Of a stretch of 64,000 bases of DNA, positions 1 to 9,775 are shown in pieces. Where the stretch lies: the IMG/VR virus record IMGVR_UViG_3300008114_000011, one strand, 5' to 3'. The notes beneath the pieces were generated by a model. That model saw only the letters and a program-made list of their open reading frames with translations. It ran no database searches and was not told the origin of the DNA. The stretch comes from a virus. Its lineage: Duplodnaviria; Heunggongvirae; Uroviricota; Caudoviricetes. Made by a program: the position numbers and the translations under genes. The number at the start of each line of letters is the position of its first letter. Within the stretch, counting starts at the first letter, position 1.

Positions 1-2
1 CA

Positions 3-266
3 TTGAGTTTAATTCATAAACAACAAACATCATACATGAGTTGGATTGATGAATTTATAACTGTTCGTAGAAGTAATTATATAAAATTAATTCATAAGAA
101 ACTACACACAAAAGATCTTACTTATTATAATATAAAGGTTATTGAACACCCATTTGAAATTAATAAGTCCTATTATGATTTAGAATTATGTGGTAATATC
201 CAAATAATAACAAATATCATAAAAGAGAAAATAAGAGACATAAAATTAAATCAATTAGGAATATAA
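3..266 (+). CDS. ELGI-tail family small protein (start uncertain, may extend beyond window edge)
   Basis: ORF open from window edge; C-terminus IRDIKLNQLGI matches recurrent tail motif. Confidence 0.5.
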   Translation: MSLIHKQQTSYMSWIDEFITVRRSNYIKLIHKKLHTKDLTYYNIKVIEHPFEINKSYYDLELCGNIQIITNIIKEKIRDIKLNQLGI

Positions 267-277
267 TATATTGTCAC

Positions 278-991
278 ATGGAACATAATGAAAATATTCT
301 AAATAAAATTAGATCCAATATAAAAGACTTTTGGAGATTGATTTCTATCGAGAAAAGTAAAGTTAAAGATGATAAATATTATGATATTACTTACATAAGT
401 TTAGAGTATTATAATAACAAACCACAATTTACTATTGAGTGTGAAATGCTTGATATAAAAGCTGAAGTTCGTGATAGTCTTATAGACTTCATCTTAAAAA
501 CAGATAGAGAAGAACTACCATCATTTGATGTAGAAAGTATTATCTATACACAAGAACAACAAAAACGATTAGAAGAACTTAGAACTCCAACTAAACAATA
601 TAAGTTTGATTATCGTCAAGTTATTGAAGCAAAGAAAGAATATTCAAAGTCTTTTGAAATAGGAGACCCAGTACACTACAATGGACACTATGGTATTATA
701 ACATTCAAACACCAATATCTTGGTGGTAACCAACTATGGAGTGTTAAAGTAGGAGATACCGAACATAGATATGTAGATGGTGTTTGTTTACGTAAACGAA
801 AAAAAGAAGATCTTACTAATATTTCAATTGATAAAAAACTTGATAAACTCTCTACTGAAAGACTTTTAAAGATGTATAAAAGAAGTTTGTTTATAAATCA
901 AGGAAGAGGAAATCTAAAAATAAAAAGAATACTTAACGAACGCGAACACGTTCAAAAAGGAGAAACTAAAGTAATAAATCACAAACACTAA
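278..991 (+). CDS. hypothetical protein
   Basis: 237-aa ORF with ATG start close to upstream stop; no motif recognised. Confidence 0.6.
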   Translation: MEHNENILNKIRSNIKDFWRLISIEKSKVKDDKYYDITYISLEYYNNKPQFTIECEMLDIKAEVRDSLIDFILKTDREELPSFDVESIIYTQEQQKRLEELRTPTKQYKFDYRQVIEAKKEYSKSFEIGDPVHYNGHYGIITFKHQYLGGNQLWSVKVGDTEHRYVDGVCLRKRKKEDLTNISIDKKLDKLSTERLLKMYKRSLFINQGRGNLKIKRILNEREHVQKGETKVINHKH

Positions 992-1272
992 TGGAAAAAA
1001 TATTCTGTATAAAAACTTTTATATTATCAGGAACAGAAAACATTCTTGTAGAAGAAGGTAAATGGTATGTTGGTGAAGAGTTTATGAATAAAGTATATAG
1101 AATATTTGGTGAAGGTAAATCAACACCATCTGAATTAGTTATACCAGAACCAACAGGATTTAAAGTTGATGGTGTTGATATTTATGATAATTATATCGGT
1201 ATGTTTATGAAAGAACTATTCATAAACCATACCATGTTTAGAGATGAAAAACTTAATAAGATATTAGAATGA
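991..1272 (+). CDS. small protein with degenerate ELGI-type tail
   Basis: 93 aa; TAATG stop/start overlap; C-term FRDEKLNKILE. Confidence 0.6.
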   Translation: MEKIFCIKTFILSGTENILVEEGKWYVGEEFMNKVYRIFGEGKSTPSELVIPEPTGFKVDGVDIYDNYIGMFMKELFINHTMFRDEKLNKILE

Positions 1273-1499
1273 AAGTTATTTGTATAGATGATTATGACTT
1301 AGCTGGACGTAAAGTAAAACTAACACCAGGTAAAATATATAATGTTGATTCAAATAAAAACGGTTATTTATTTGATAAAGATAAAGGAGCATGGGTCGTA
1401 ACAAATGATGCTGGTATACAAAGATGGTATTACAAGGATGTTTTAATGCCACTAGAAAAATGGAGAGAAATTAGAATAAAAGAATTGGGAATATCCTAG
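1269..1499 (+). CDS. ELGI-tail family small protein (MKVICI subfamily)
   Basis: 76 aa; N-term MKVICIDDYD; C-term EKWREIRIKELGIS; ATGA overlap. Confidence 0.7.
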   Translation: MKVICIDDYDLAGRKVKLTPGKIYNVDSNKNGYLFDKDKGAWVVTNDAGIQRWYYKDVLMPLEKWREIRIKELGIS

Positions 1500-1507
1500 A
1501 AAATTAT

Positions 1508-1515
1508 TATATTTG
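1508..1515 (+). promoter_or_regulatory. Bacteroidota-type -7 box TATATTTG
   Basis: Matches TAnnTTTG; 19 nt upstream of ATG at 1534 in an intergenic gap. Confidence 0.45.
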
Positions 1516-1533
1516 TTATAAAATCTAAAGAAT

Positions 1534-1986
1534 ATGGAAAAAACACCAATGCAACAACTTATCGATAAGATAGAACTTTATGACCAAAGAGGTGGTATTA
1601 ATATGCCTACACTTAAAGCAGTATTACAATCCTATCTTAGATTAGAAACTGAGTATTTAGAAAAACTAAAAGAAAATCAAACATCTAATATCAGTGAAGA
1701 TGCTTCTTTACTTATTGATAAGATAGATAAAGCAATTCAAAAGTTCGGCACTTACAGTTATGATGATAAAGGACCACATGAAGTAATGAACATGAATGAT
1801 ATCATAAAATTTCTAAAAAACAAACCTTTAAAAGAAATTGGTAAGATCCTATCCGAAGTATTAGACAACTACTCCAATTACTCAAGAGCATCTTATTTTG
1901 TTAATACTGTTATAGGAGAGTTTGATTATCTTCCTGAAGAAGAGTTTGAGCAATTACTTGATTGTGATAAAAGATTTGAATACTAA
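1534..1986 (+). CDS. hypothetical protein; N-terminal paralog of 11292..11528
   Basis: MEKTPMQQLIDKIELYDQRGGINMPTLKAVLQSYL vs MADKTPMEQLIDKIDLYDKNGGINMFTLKDVLQSYL. Confidence 0.65.
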   Translation: MEKTPMQQLIDKIELYDQRGGINMPTLKAVLQSYLRLETEYLEKLKENQTSNISEDASLLIDKIDKAIQKFGTYSYDDKGPHEVMNMNDIIKFLKNKPLKEIGKILSEVLDNYSNYSRASYFVNTVIGEFDYLPEEEFEQLLDCDKRFEY

Positions 1987-1990
1987 GAAT

Positions 1991-8084: not shown

Positions 8085-8096
8085 ACAAAGACTAAT

Positions 8097-8318
8097 ATGA
8101 TAACAGAATACTCAACAACCGAACCAATAGTTACTAAAAGAGATATTATTAGATTAACCGTAAATATCATTCCGGTTGACTTTTATGTAGATGAAATAAT
8201 AGATGGAATTCCACAAATAAGTATTCTATTACCTTATCTCAATAATGTTGAATATACAGAGTATAGATTAGGAGCTACTCAACCTTTAAGAACAGGACAA
8301 GAATATGAAAAACTATAA
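8097..8318 (+). CDS. hypothetical protein
   Basis: 73 aa ORF in the co-directional chain. Confidence 0.45.
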   Translation: MITEYSTTEPIVTKRDIIRLTVNIIPVDFYVDEIIDGIPQISILLPYLNNVEYTEYRLGATQPLRTGQEYEKL

Positions 8319-8344
8319 CACATAATTTACTTTTAATATGGTTT

Positions 8345-8569
8345 ATGAAAGAAGGTGATATTGTTTTTTGTATTGATTCATCTGATCATGGTAAGAAACA
8401 GAAATTAACTTATGGTAAAGGATATACAATTAAAAGAATTGATAATTATAAATTAAATTCAAGTATATCCATTAAAAATGATAGTGGTGTAATTGGTATT
8501 TATAATTTTAATAGATTTATAACTCTCAAAGAATGGAGAGATAAGAAACTAAAAGAACTTGGGTTATGA
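8345..8569 (+). CDS. ELGI-tail family small protein
   Basis: 74 aa; C-term KEWRDKKLKELGL. Confidence 0.65.
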   Translation: MKEGDIVFCIDSSDHGKKQKLTYGKGYTIKRIDNYKLNSSISIKNDSGVIGIYNFNRFITLKEWRDKKLKELGL

Positions 8570-8835
8570 AAATGGTTTGTATAACAAATAAAATAAAAGG
8601 AAAAAACTTATCCAACCAATTAGTTGTTGGTAAAGAGTATGATTTCAAAGTGCAAGACTATGGTAGACTAACAAGTAATAGATATTGCTCTGTTTATTAC
8701 TATTGTACAAATGTTAGAGATAAATCAAATGCTTGGATAAGATTTACCGGTTCTGGTGGAGTTGATTGTATTTGGAGATGGTTTTCAACTAAACAGAATA
8801 TTAGAGATCAAAAACTAAAAGAGATTGGGATATGA
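8566..8835 (+). CDS. ELGI-tail family small protein (MKVICI subfamily)
   Basis: MKMVCITNK...NIRDQKLKEIGI. Confidence 0.65.
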   Translation: MKMVCITNKIKGKNLSNQLVVGKEYDFKVQDYGRLTSNRYCSVYYYCTNVRDKSNAWIRFTGSGGVDCIWRWFSTKQNIRDQKLKEIGI

Positions 8836-9032
8836 ATGTAGATGAAGATTTACTAAGATATTTTATTATACATTCACAAGGAATTAAACACGACGGTCCT
8901 TTATTTGATATCAGATTACTTGGTAATTCAATTATGTTTAGACTGAATCCTAATAGTGGTGCTTATGGTGTTGATTATAACTACTATAAGAGTTTATTAA
9001 GAGATAAGAAACTAAAAAATCTTGGGATATGA
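8832..9032 (+). CDS. ELGI-tail family small protein
   Basis: 66 aa; C-term LLRDKKLKNLGI; contains the 70-nt segment repeated at 15464. Confidence 0.65.
   Translation: MNVDEDLLRYFIIHSQGIKHDGPLFDIRLLGNSIMFRLNPNSGAYGVDYNYYKSLLRDKKLKNLGI
8888..8957 (+). repeat. 70-nt near-identical repeat (copy 1; partner 15464..15533)
   Basis: acacgacggtcctttatttgata...cctaatagt vs acacgagggtcctttatttgata...cctaatagt; about 3 mismatches by eye. Confidence 0.8.
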
Positions 9033-9247
9033 AAGAGATAAAGATTGGTACCAGATACCTTTGGATTGAAGATGGATATATCATAAGAGGAATTATAAAG
9101 GATATAAAAGAGAAAAACATAATCATACACTGGTATGGTAAGACAAACTATTCATACAAAATAGATTATTTTATGAATGAAACCAGAATACAGATGGATA
9201 AAGAGTATTATAGAGATCAGAAACTAAAAGATCTTCTGGGTATATAA
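9029..9247 (+). CDS. ELGI-tail family small protein
   Basis: 72 aa; C-term YYRDQKLKDLLGI. Confidence 0.6.
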   Translation: MKEIKIGTRYLWIEDGYIIRGIIKDIKEKNIIIHWYGKTNYSYKIDYFMNETRIQMDKEYYRDQKLKDLLGI

Positions 9248-9262
9248 AAATAAAAACGAATT

Positions 9263-9481
9263 ATGAAGAAAGTAAAATGTAAACAATGTGATTGTGAAAT
9301 ATTTCATGAATATACATCAATAGAAAGTCTAAACACTGGCTTTTGGTCTAAAAAAAAGAAAGAGAAATATATATCTGAACTTGAACAGATACCATCAGAA
9401 ACATGTCATACTTCAATATATTTAACATGTGGTAATGGTCATTTCGATAATTACTTCTGTAATGTAGAAACTCGTGATTAA
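9263..9481 (+). CDS. small Cys-rich protein (possible zinc ribbon)
   Basis: CKQCDC near N-term and CHTSIYLTCGNGH near C-term. Confidence 0.5.
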   Translation: MKKVKCKQCDCEIFHEYTSIESLNTGFWSKKKKEKYISELEQIPSETCHTSIYLTCGNGHFDNYFCNVETRD

Positions 9482-9490
9482 ATTGGACTT

Positions 9491-9775
9491 ATGAAAATAT
9501 TAAAACTCTTATTAAAGATATTTGAGGAGAAACCTAAACTAAAAAAAGTTATTGATTATGGAAAGGATCATCCATCAATTGGTGATTTTATCATTTCAAT
9601 TTCAAATGATAGAGGTTTAATTTATGGCAAGAAATATGAAGTAACTCGATTATATTATAATAATGGTGCCATTAATGAACTTGGACATGGTGTTTCTGAT
9701 ATGAACCTATTTGTTTATGAAAGAGATTTATTACAGTACAATAGAGATAAAAAACTAAGAAAACTGGGTTTATAA
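9491..9775 (+). CDS. ELGI-tail family small protein
   Basis: 94 aa; C-term YNRDKKLRKLGL. Confidence 0.6.
   Translation: MKILKLLLKIFEEKPKLKKVIDYGKDHPSIGDFIISISNDRGLIYGKKYEVTRLYYNNGAINELGHGVSDMNLFVYERDLLQYNRDKKLRKLGL

Follow-up and report, generated by a model that had tools for sequence, protein, structure and literature searches.

The window analysed here is a 64,000-nucleotide (nt) stretch of the virus record IMGVR_UViG_3300008114_000011 (IMG/VR; Caudoviricetes), with a G+C content of about 28%. Dense arrays of small open reading frames (ORFs) fill its + strand and are broken by a few blocks of minus-strand genes. The subject of this paper is a short peptide, here called the tail, that reads R-D/E-x-K-L-x-x-L-G-I and stands at the C-terminus of about one-third of the phage's small genes; the proteins that carry it are otherwise unrelated. 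No enzyme or structural protein of the window bears it. The recognisable genes are those of a large Bacteroidota phage. They include an NAPRTase (best cultured match, Tenacibaculum jumbo phage PTm1, 46%), an AAA-like ATPase of phrog_1250 (best cultured relative 44% identical), PARG, NUDIX, GNAT and HAD_SAK_2 domain proteins, homing endonucleases, intein fragments and a tyrosine recombinase. The host is probably a member of the Bacteroidota: the clearest pointers are a 574-amino-acid (aa) protein with a type IX secretion C-terminal sorting domain (56025-57749, +; Por_Secre_tail, E 1.5e-9) and promoter boxes of the TAnnTTTG type.

Most genes of large phages are small ORFans that offer no handle for study. 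A sequence-only reading of this DNA had noticed the tail and had suggested that it might be a common C-terminal helix or tag, and also a translational-coupling or recombination linker. Here we report that the motif is real, widespread and apparently undescribed, and that it is under selection at the level of the peptide. The roles of the junction DNA in starting the next gene and in recombination are real and appear secondary.

Results

A peptide shared by the ends of small genes

A regular expression applied to all six frames gave 27 matches, 26 of which end 0-1 residue before a stop codon. From the tails found in this way we built a position weight matrix (PWM) and scanned the six-frame translation of the window at a threshold of at least 8 bits. 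Of the 40 matches, 38 lie 0-2 residues short of a stop codon, all of these on the + strand, against 0-4 matches in Markov shuffles of the window. The two exceptions are one chance match and one out-of-frame remnant at 23700. When the called genes were searched with a relaxed C-terminal pattern, 47 fitted it (46 on the + strand and one on the minus strand), 22 of them in positions 1-9775. The tail is real and far beyond chance. An example of its 14-residue form is LEEWRDKKLNELGI.

The sequence-only reading had counted about 50 tail ORFs, about 22 of them in 1-9775. This count stands under the relaxed definition, but the pattern as it had been written fits only eight genes. The further runs that it placed at 12.7-16.9, 18.1-23.9, 31.3-32.9 and 40.0-46.4 kb all hold PWM matches. 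Its two minus-strand copies fared worse: that at 36992 is weak, and that at 38504 (…RRRKNLDDLV) is no match. Its remark that the junction DNA is nearly identical in the best copies was borne out, since the 24-mer AAACTAAATGAACTTGGTATATGA occurs in three exact copies and in four more with up to three mismatches, where none is expected by chance. As controls that resemble the window in composition and architecture we used Tenacibaculum phage PTm1 (all 224.7 kb, GC 0.29-0.31) and an array of 97 small genes in Bacteroides phage DAC19 (50 kb, GC 0.23); neither has a terminal tail match.

Conservation follows the peptide

Is the junction conserved as peptide, as DNA, or as both? A logo of 121 tails spans only ten residues: R, D/E/N, x, K, L, N/K, E/K/Q/D, L, G and I, numbered 0 to 9; hydrophobic residues are weakly preferred at -4 and -1. 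The most informative positions are R0, L4, L7 and G8; the Arg is present in 121 of 121, in a set that derives from an R-only seed. The tail ends exactly at the Ile in 101 of the 121, and about 16% have extensions of 1-2 residues. In the segment L-x-E, the Glu is found in 65 of 121 tails (54%), with K, Q and D common in its place.

At the nucleotide level, the information is codon-periodic: second positions reach 2.0 bits, whereas third positions hold 0.4-1.0 bits. It drops off immediately upstream of the Arg codon and again three bases after the stop. Codon choice is mostly that of the genome. The exceptions are the last Ile, encoded by ATA in 92% of tails (genome, 42%), and the first Leu, encoded by CTA in 37% (genome, 12%). 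At positions where a pair of tails agree in amino acid, the codon is also identical at a frequency of 0.60-0.66, and shuffling predicts 0.61-0.62. Concerted evolution of neighbouring tails at the DNA level was considered and set aside, the excess of adjacent over distant tails being borderline (0.66 vs 0.62, p ~0.05). Among homologous bearers, the tails are still about 0.7 identical while the identity of the bodies has fallen to 0.27-0.35. Because the information is periodic, synonymous sites are saturated and tails outlast bodies in this way, we conclude that purifying selection maintains the peptide and that the DNA has undergone little concerted evolution. What is selected is the peptide and not the DNA. 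The earlier proposal of a C-terminal helix or tag under constraint is supported; the companion proposal, constraint on the nucleotides as well, is not supported by these numbers.

Tails along the window

All tails in this section lie on the + strand unless stated otherwise, and bits are PWM scores. Many tail genes end in an ATGA overlap, in which the stop codon shares letters with the ATG of the next gene. The first array begins with RDIKLNQLGI and its stop (234-266, gene 36-266, 27.4 bits). RDEKLNKILE (1240-1272, gene 991-1272, 11.9 bits) is degenerate and has the ATGA overlap; REIRIKELGIS (1464-1499, 22.0 bits) ends gene 1269-1499, which alignment places in the SH3-like family described below. 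Another degenerate copy with the overlap, REEKLNQLLS (2695-2727, 14.0 bits), precedes REEKLNELGIC (3271-3306, 30.0 bits) on the SH3-like gene 3091-3306 and RDRKLSELGIE (3714-3749, 27.7 bits) on gene 3300-3749, whose product has an N-terminal membrane anchor. RDKKIENILKR (3943-3978, ATGA overlap) is weak and fits the relaxed pattern only. The SH3-like gene 4698-4922 ends in REKQLNELGI with the overlap (4890-4922, 29.0 bits), gene 4919-5140 in REKRLKEIGI (5108-5140, 25.1 bits) and gene 5190-5432 in the degenerate REIKLNDLLK (5400-5432, 9.2 bits).

The three exact copies of the 24-mer junction encode RERKLNELGI at 5855-5887 (30.5 bits), the end of the all-alpha protein of gene 5660-5887; RERKLNELGI again at 6199-6231 (30.5 bits); and RDNKLNELGI at 6438-6470 (29.9 bits), the left crossover site of a strain indel. 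ATGA overlaps then accompany RDEKLNELGI (6668-6700, 30.7 bits), REEKLKELGI (6916-6948, 29.2 bits; the right crossover site of the same indel), RDQKLNELGI (7203-7235, 32.0 bits), RDQKLNELGV (7559-7591, 29.5 bits), RDKKLKELGL (8537-8569, 27.3 bits), RDQKLKEIGI (8803-8835, 29.0 bits) and RDKKLKNLGI (9000-9032, 26.0 bits). The variant RDQKLKDLLGI (9212-9247, 11.0 bits) and RDKKLRKLGL (9743-9775, 23.2 bits), the last tail of the first array, follow.

Further on lie the degenerate RDKKISELLKK (12957-12992, 9.5 bits), RNKKLEELGI (14249-14281, 23.8 bits), RDDKLKELGIC (15081-15116, 28.1 bits), REMKLKEIGL with the overlap (15356-15388, 24.1 bits), RDIKINQLMS and its stop in a short uncalled ORF (15915-15947, 9.5 bits) and the variant RDKKLSELLGEN (16178-16216, 13.9 bits). 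They are succeeded by RDSRLTHLGI (19030-19062, 14.4 bits), the degenerate RNAKLNTLNI (22378-22410, ATGA overlap, 9.0 bits), REEKLNELGII of the SH3-like family (23897-23932, 30.0 bits), the degenerate REIKLNNIIGI (31615-31650, ATGA overlap, 9.7 bits) and the SH3-like RDFKLKKIGVI (32830-32865, 21.7 bits). The run at 40-46 kb holds RENKLNELGI (42039-42071, 29.3 bits); RDIKLKELGI (43865-43897, 29.1 bits), on the longest bearer in the window (212 aa); RDELLKELGI (44378-44410, 23.6 bits), RDSQLRKIGIK (44590-44625, 20.7 bits) and RDFKLNELGI (45379-45411, 30.3 bits), each with the overlap; and the variant RDKKLKELLK (46334-46366, 16.4 bits). Weak tails that fit the relaxed pattern are RDIKINTILSKNEKN (13909-13956, by that pattern only), RDMRLSTLLE (16838-16870), RDVRLANLLKTY (18361-18399), RDMRLKLILEL (19632-19667, ATGA overlap), RDEKIREIL (21953-21982), RDYQLETLIN (25972-26004), RDIKLSDLI (40497-40526), RDKKLESILD (44826-44858), REIKLNELL (45134-45163, ATGA overlap) and the only minus-strand candidate, RELKLKQIINEI (36992-37030, 6.7 bits).

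Both untranslated copies of the junction that had been reported proved real on reading the sequence, and each gives the next gene its ATG. The remnant ACTAAAAAGAATTAGGAATATGA (5641-5663), which has a 1-nt insertion, lies 3' of the stop at 5624-5626 and supplies the start of gene 5660-5887. The other, RSNKLKELGI (23700-23731, 22.9 bits), lies out of frame over the end of gene 23422-23715; its frame is closed two codons upstream, and it provides the ATG of gene 23729-23932.

The junction, the next start codon and promoters

The ATGA overlap is found in 18 of 37 tail genes and in 6 of 79 other + strand genes; among the strong tails, 20 of 38 end in ATGA. The view that the junction provides the next start codon is correct for about half of the cases. 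In the other half, the stop is TAA or TAG and a spacer comes next, in many cases with a promoter box; such tails are equally conserved. Because these tails keep the peptide, its conservation is independent of the overlap. Where the last Ile is ATA and the stop is TGA, the junction reads ATATGA and the next gene starts on the overlapping ATG. To our knowledge, Bacteroidota hosts do not use Shine-Dalgarno sites, and ATATGA would suit termination-reinitiation in a host of that kind. Shine-Dalgarno-like content in the junction was looked for and rejected: the GGA variants have only AGGA, 2 nt from the ATG, and the GGT variants have none.

Junction RNA is unstructured (mean minimum free energy -3.2 kcal/mol per 60 nt, mean z +0.14). 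This excludes hairpins of the terminator type, of the integron attC type and of the PeSL type (the stem-loop and early-promoter elements of T4-type phages), and is compatible with an open initiation region. An integron attC site fails also for want of any repeat architecture, despite the tyrosine recombinase at 29970-30770, and no att-like repeats were found at the tail junctions. The phage encodes a homologue of initiation factor 3 (IF3; 58500-59033, +). IF3_N and IF3_C are among the Pfam matches of the window, and the ORF was assigned by reading its translation. It may matter for start-codon selection or reinitiation in arrays of overlapping genes.

The Bacteroidota -7 box TAnnTTTG, mostly in the form TTAT-TATATTTG-T, is about threefold over-represented in the intergenic DNA of the + strand: 19 of its 66 + strand occurrences fall in the intergenic 9.4% of the window. 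In many tail arrays, a box lies 5-50 nt 5' of the first gene. One copy of TATATTTG is inside the first array (1508-1515, +), and others of this kind are at 13039, 15962, 16278, 18677, 20338, 22781, 23081, 23983 and 43909. These boxes suggest that the arrays would be transcribed by the host RNA polymerase, that is, as early genes.

Two further kinds of element were seen near promoters. A hairpin-forming repeat (ACTAAAATCCGCACGTTTTTTAGT or AAAATCCGTGCGGATTTT) occurs at 20250-20267, 23952-23969, 25479-25496 and 26113-26130, with related copies at 22743 and 23042. It is intergenic and lies 20-90 nt upstream of -7 boxes, as a terminator-plus-promoter composite; it is reminiscent of the PeSL cassettes and is separate from the tails. 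A second promoter-like motif (TTTTAATATATA / TATATATA), distinct from TAnnTTTG, is intergenic in 27861-29275 and 46367-48871, before genes at 27-30 and 46-49 kb, and may be a middle or late promoter.

Recombination at the junctions

We found five strain indels in the first 10 kb by blastn and by reading the junctions. In one, strain L038 lacks exactly two genes, a cassette at window 6474-6951 (genes 6467-6700 and 6697-6948, +), and the crossover lies within GGTATATGAAAG, which is common to both junctions. The other four have their breakpoints inside genes, at microhomologies. The suggestion of a recombination linker thus holds in part: the junction is sometimes a crossover point, but only one indel in five has both breakpoints in junctions. 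No strain variation was found in the 40-46 kb array.

Mosaic boundaries also occur among relatives. In the IMG/VR loci L021, L026 and L029, a tail gene and the gene beside it are separated by no insert, by one gene or by about 1.5 kb, with every insert exactly at the junction. Several relatives suggest that exchange has taken place within tails. P0008 combines the body of 6228-6470 with another tail end, and P0004 has the composite tail WREI-IRDQKLKELGI. In L175 and L176, homology to the window extends over one gene and the adjoining tails, with different neighbours on both sides. The 131-aa gene at 1991-2386 is chimeric with respect to L038, where its halves are split by a 4.47 kb, 12-gene segment (L038 3407-7877) with six tail genes and three minus-strand genes of the MKYLK type described below; the join, at window 2213-2221, shows only 2-3 nt of microhomology. 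The junction therefore serves as a crossover point at times, while its DNA shows no constraint of the homology type. Some coincidence of breakpoints and junctions is expected in any case, because overlapping genes can be shuffled intact only by breaks at the junction. The stretch of roughly 30 nt that junctions have in common occasionally acts as a crossover site, and whole genes are thereby gained, lost or re-tailed in frame.

The proteins that carry the tail

The bodies are mostly unrelated, as had been stated: 121 tail ORFs fall into 91 BLAST clusters. In a larger set of 401 distinct bearers, removal of the tail left 148 clusters, with 91 singletons and a largest family of 142 members (35%). 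This is the MK[VA]ICI group, whose existence as a subfamily the alignment confirms. Searches of 121 + 69 bearers against Pfam-A, PHROGs and NCBIfam gave sporadic matches to bodies (DUF1660, DUF6501, acyl-carrier protein (ACP), phrog_4927) and no family that covers the tail itself; profile searches of the Protein Data Bank (PDB) likewise gave no family that describes it, in agreement with the earlier remark that it resembles no described domain. The only confident match to a characterised domain was one ACP-like member. Some other bearers have N-terminal membrane anchors.

In AlphaFold 2 (AF2) models of two bearers with unrelated predicted folds, the tail is the end of a C-terminal alpha-helix. 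An SH3-like MK[VA]ICI bearer (4698-4922) is modelled as a five-stranded SH3-like barrel followed by helix 61-71, which is the tail (predicted local distance difference test score, pLDDT, 85). The bearer encoded at 5660-5887 is modelled as a four-helix protein whose last helix, 48-72, ends in the tail (pLDDT 92.7), with L-G-I non-helical. In a classical Gly C-cap, a hydrophobic residue after the Gly folds back; by this rule and on the two models, G8-I9 fits this arrangement. The tail would then supply the final two turns of an amphipathic alpha-helix (Φ-x-x-Φ-R-[DEN]-x-K-L-[NK]-x-L) plus a Gly-Ile C-cap. Fold searches with the SH3-like model (PDB, BFVD) returned generic SH3-like proteins only and no functional lead.

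Natural fusions were also seen. A 174-aa metagenome ORF has a complete internal tail (…MREDKLNELGI-DRDL…), and in P0042 the tail is duplicated (…RDKKLKDLGIKPMFIATVRDKKLTQLGIT). They show that tail units act as modules and that loss of a stop codon merges neighbouring genes.

Spread of the tail

Collections were scanned with a degenerate DNA pattern for K-L-[NK]-E-L-G-I-stop. It was found at 29 loci in IMG/VR, including contigs of 476, 483, 312 and 281 kb, at two loci in species-representative genomes and, as a lower bound, at more than 119 loci in metagenomes. Additional tails that had not been selected for lie near the seeded copies: two stretches of the 476 kb contig have 12 and 7, and L018 has 12. 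L054 has 12 tandem tail genes of about 70 aa, and a further ten tails lie upstream of the window, within 5.3 kb. The metagenome loci, 563 kb in total, have, among the matches listed, 429 tail matches, 414 of which end 0-2 residues before a stop. A profile made from the tails of the window only, run against 1.84 billion representative proteins, gave 38 matches at E <= 0.001; all 38 end within 4 residues of the C-terminus, in proteins of 38-95 aa. Across IMG/VR and metagenome contigs, the tail ends several hundred small ORFan proteins.

Several metagenome assemblies contain the DNA of the window, and locus L037 is 100% identical to positions 1-14922. A megablast of window 1-10000 against the phage collection gave no match, and two window proteins used as queries for related loci in IMG/VR found no relatives. 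An AAA-like core gene, 70-92% identical, is common to seven loci with the junction pattern, the window being one of them, and the tail carriers therefore form a lineage. The bearers belong to one clade of uncultured, low-GC, large Bacteroidota phages.

Other features of the window

A second shared terminal peptide, M-[KR]-Y/x-[LI]-K-x-F-E-x-F, starts about 9-10 otherwise different proteins, mostly on the minus strand. These MKYLK-type genes lie at 9796-10344, 10375-10914, 10914-11210, 16988-17560, 33886-34317, 51549-51932 and 60181-61158 on the minus strand and at 4143-4403 and 35723-35884 on the + strand. The product of 9796-10344 has leucine-rich-repeat-like units. The peptide may be an N-terminal counterpart of the C-terminal tag; for comparison, the targeting sequence of phage T4 is MKTYQEFIAE.

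Directly 3' of a tail gene stand two tandem paralogues of 99 aa (31647-31946 and 31943-32242, +; MTLEELRDRPLE… and MTLEELREKSLE…), joined by an ATGA overlap and both ending in …RIKEEISKL. The tyrosine recombinase (29970-30770, +; Phage_integrase, E 8e-35) lies amid a region that looks like that of a large lytic phage. The gene after it (30795-31256, +) encodes a C-terminus with ...CCGECNGKKGNK... and may correspond to the HNH match of the window. A cluster of the mobile-endonuclease type (NUMOD3, T5orf172/DUF723, GIY-YIG/NUMOD1) and an ORF with an intein-splicing domain (46405-47193, 48872-49846, 53754-54587, 59137-60168) surround the NAPRTase and PRTase genes. Rfam finds two tRNA genes, at 12126-12215 (90 nt) and 26015-26084 (+); ARAGORN finds only the latter, a tRNA-Leu(TAA). 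A G+C-rich spacer of 225 nt (12450-12674) ends in the T-arm-like GGTTCGAGTCC and matches no Rfam family at the gathering score. The long ORF-free intergenic stretches 24178-24408, 24732-24871 and 25399-25584, which adjoin the tRNA region and have an unusually high G+C of 0.34, may be non-coding RNAs or degraded mobile elements.

Discussion

We hold it very probable that the tail is a functional motif at the level of the peptide. What might it do? Our tentative answer, to which we would give somewhat less than an even chance, is that it is a portable docking helix that would link many unrelated early accessory proteins to one common partner. On a helical wheel, residues -4, -1, R0, K3, L4 and L7 would fall on one face, and the R0/K3/L4/L7 face would be the short docking motif. 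Candidate partners would be hubs of the host or of the phage, such as an unfoldase or protease that removes early proteins, or the machinery of replication, transcription or translation. In support of docking, the motif is C-terminal almost without exception, ends about 150 unrelated bodies, is under peptide-level selection and is helical in both predicted folds. The host-type boxes before the arrays and the restriction of the tail to one lineage also speak for it. Several observations weigh against it. The evidence for early expression of the tail arrays consists of promoter-like boxes. Because some 16% of tails run 1-2 residues past the Ile, a free carboxylate is not required, and such extensions argue against end recognition of the PDZ or ClpX type. 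Position 6 (E, K, Q or D) differs by contig, which may reflect coevolution with a partner or mere shared ancestry. In the SH3-like family, a conserved Trp or Tyr stands just N-terminal to the tail, which is an integral helix of the fold, so the motif could be a structural element spread by recombination with no common ligand.

A bolder form of the docking idea, and a rather doubtful one, is that the tail is a clade-specific C-terminal address tag with which freshwater and marine Bacteroidota phages, a large and uncultured group, would label a fast-diversifying early arsenal of accessory proteins, more than 100 unrelated ORFan families, for one dedicated receptor. That receptor might be a protease timer under phage control, a compartment or a host hub, and the in-frame junction would let new genes enter array and pathway in one step. 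ClpP was considered as the receptor and rejected: a true ClpP (E 1.6e-54) adjoins tail genes in L019 only, whereas the remaining loci with ClpP have no tails and matched the DNA pattern by chance, so there is no association.

The alternatives differ in what they require of the peptide and of the DNA. Were the tail a structural relic, its bearers would descend from, or have recombined with, the SH3-like MKVICI family, and it would be a capping helix that stabilises small domains with no common ligand. That family supplies 35% of the bearers, nearly all of its members are tailed, its tandem arrays reach 12 genes (L054), and AF2 sets the helix beside the barrel at high confidence. We consider this unlikely all the same: the same ten residues end all-alpha, membrane-anchored and ACP-like proteins and about 90 singletons, and it would be surprising if R, K, L, L, G and I stayed unchanged on unrelated cores while the bodies fall below 30% identity. 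Two special cases of docking have a small chance of being right, namely a C-terminal degron, with an AAA+ protease as timer for early proteins, and a capsid- or compartment-targeting peptide. The strictly C-terminal position and the small, diverse bearers suit them, as do the precedents of the diverse T4 internal proteins that share only a targeting sequence (PMC3012670) and of the Family 1 encapsulin peptide, which is C-terminal and contains LGI (PMC8346489). Tolerance of residues past the Ile tells against both, and the near-absence of ClpP from tail loci against the degron. For targeting, host-type promoters speak against late, packaged proteins, a Glu present in little more than half of the L-x-E segments makes a T4-type protease site unlikely, and the likeness to encapsulin peptides is limited to three residues.

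The two remaining proposals place the function in the junction itself, and both look secondary, because conservation is at the peptide level, synonymous sites are saturated and few indels lie in junctions. The first, to which we assign a slim chance, is a recombination or cassette linker, in which about 30 nt of homology at gene boundaries would be selected for allowing in-frame swaps of genes, as a coding analogue of PeSL or lambdoid boundary sequences. The crossover in the two-gene indel, the three insertion states at the L021/L026/L029 junction, the swapped tails of P0008 and P0004, the differing neighbours in L175 and L176, the persistence of two orphan remnants and the 4.47 kb strain-specific insertion with its six tail genes all fit such a linker. 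Selection for homology, however, would hit all codon positions alike, whereas the pattern is 3-periodic; adjacent tails are barely more alike than distant ones, four of the five indels avoid junctions, and breakpoints there are what intact shuffling of overlapping genes would give. The chance is slimmer still that the tail is a translational-coupling device, in which junction RNA, or the nascent peptide in the exit tunnel, would promote termination-reinitiation on the overlapping AUG in a host that does not rely on Shine-Dalgarno sites. Such a device would account for the excess of ATGA overlaps, the preference for ATA as the last codon, the unstructured RNA, the two remnants retained where they supply only a start codon and the phage's own IF3. 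It would not account for the half of the tails that are equally conserved in front of TAA or TAG and a spacer or promoter. Nor is any RNA motif conserved, since third codon positions are free to vary, and DAC19 packs 97 small genes as tightly with no tail.

A ten-residue signature would mark hundreds of small ORFans of large phages as one functional class that is simple to pick out in metagenomes. The tail peptide would be a bait for the common partner and possibly a portable tag for the engineering of Bacteroidota and phages. The junction, which keeps reading frame, start codon and tag together, would be a model for the addition of new genes to an existing pathway. Should the docking helix bind a protease or a host hub, that partner would expose a step at which infection is controlled in a widespread group of environmental phages.

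Comparison with known systems

Searches of the literature with motif strings such as LNELGI and KLKELGI, and for C-terminal motifs of jumbo phages, found no description of the tail, though this does not prove that none exists. The PDB profile search gave a single match, the zero-layer segment of an R-SNARE, VAMP2 (synaptobrevin; …ERDQKLSEL…, E 0.0045). In the SNARE zero layer, the equivalent Arg and two Leu, spaced as Arg, Leu+4 and Leu+7, face the core of a helical bundle. This is a likeness of nine residues within a long eukaryotic coiled coil, not C-terminal and without homology to the tail, and it is a hint only that an R/L/L face can sit in a helix-helix interface. C-terminal degrons, such as the ssrA tag and MuA-type ClpX signals, are likewise short, lie at the very C-terminus and deliver a variety of proteins to a single machine. 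They have no sequence similarity to the tail. Tags recognised by their end (PDZ ligands, ssrA-like tags) need a free C-terminus and conserve the last three residues, whereas the tail is conserved most 4-10 residues from its end. Ordinary ATGA overlaps of phages need no conserved upstream peptide.

At the DNA level, the nearest analogue is the PeSL of T4-type phages, non-coding promoter-plus-hairpin elements that flank variable ORFs (PMC2839356, PMC4122927). Like the tail, they are short conserved sequences. In hyperplastic regions, they coincide with the boundaries of insertions, deletions and replacements. They are intergenic, however, whereas the tail is in frame inside ORFs except in its two remnant copies; and they combine a stem-loop with an early promoter, whereas the promoter boxes of the window are elements separate from the tail. 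As for breakpoints, the tail junction accounts for one of the five strain indels and several mosaic junctions, the other four indels lying elsewhere.

The targeting peptide of Family 1 encapsulins has about ten residues, is C-terminal on unrelated cargo and binds a pocket of the HK97-fold shell; its consensus, SDGSLGIGSLKRS, contains LGI (PMC8346489). The terminal position is like that of the tail. Only L-G-I is shared, however: the R, K and first L of the tail have no counterpart, and the tail is predicted to be helical. No capsid gene is present in the window or in the fetched flanks.

In logic, the nearest system is the capsid-targeting sequence (CTS) of T4. The CTS is carried by late, packaged proteins and is removed by the prohead protease, whose site has the consensus L/I-x-E. 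The tail has the L-x-E, but the share of K, Q and D in place of the Glu makes a conserved cleavage site unlikely; its arrays stand behind host-type promoters. In T-even phages, the CTS is N-terminal, is the only element common to the polymorphic internal proteins and directs them into the scaffolding core of the prohead (PMC3012670). The tail is instead C-terminal, by each of the three counts given above (38/40 in the window, 414/429 among the metagenome matches listed and 38/38 in the representative proteins). In both cases, a short terminal peptide is the sole common part of small, diverse accessory or anti-defence proteins encoded at hypervariable loci of large myoviruses (PMC3012670).

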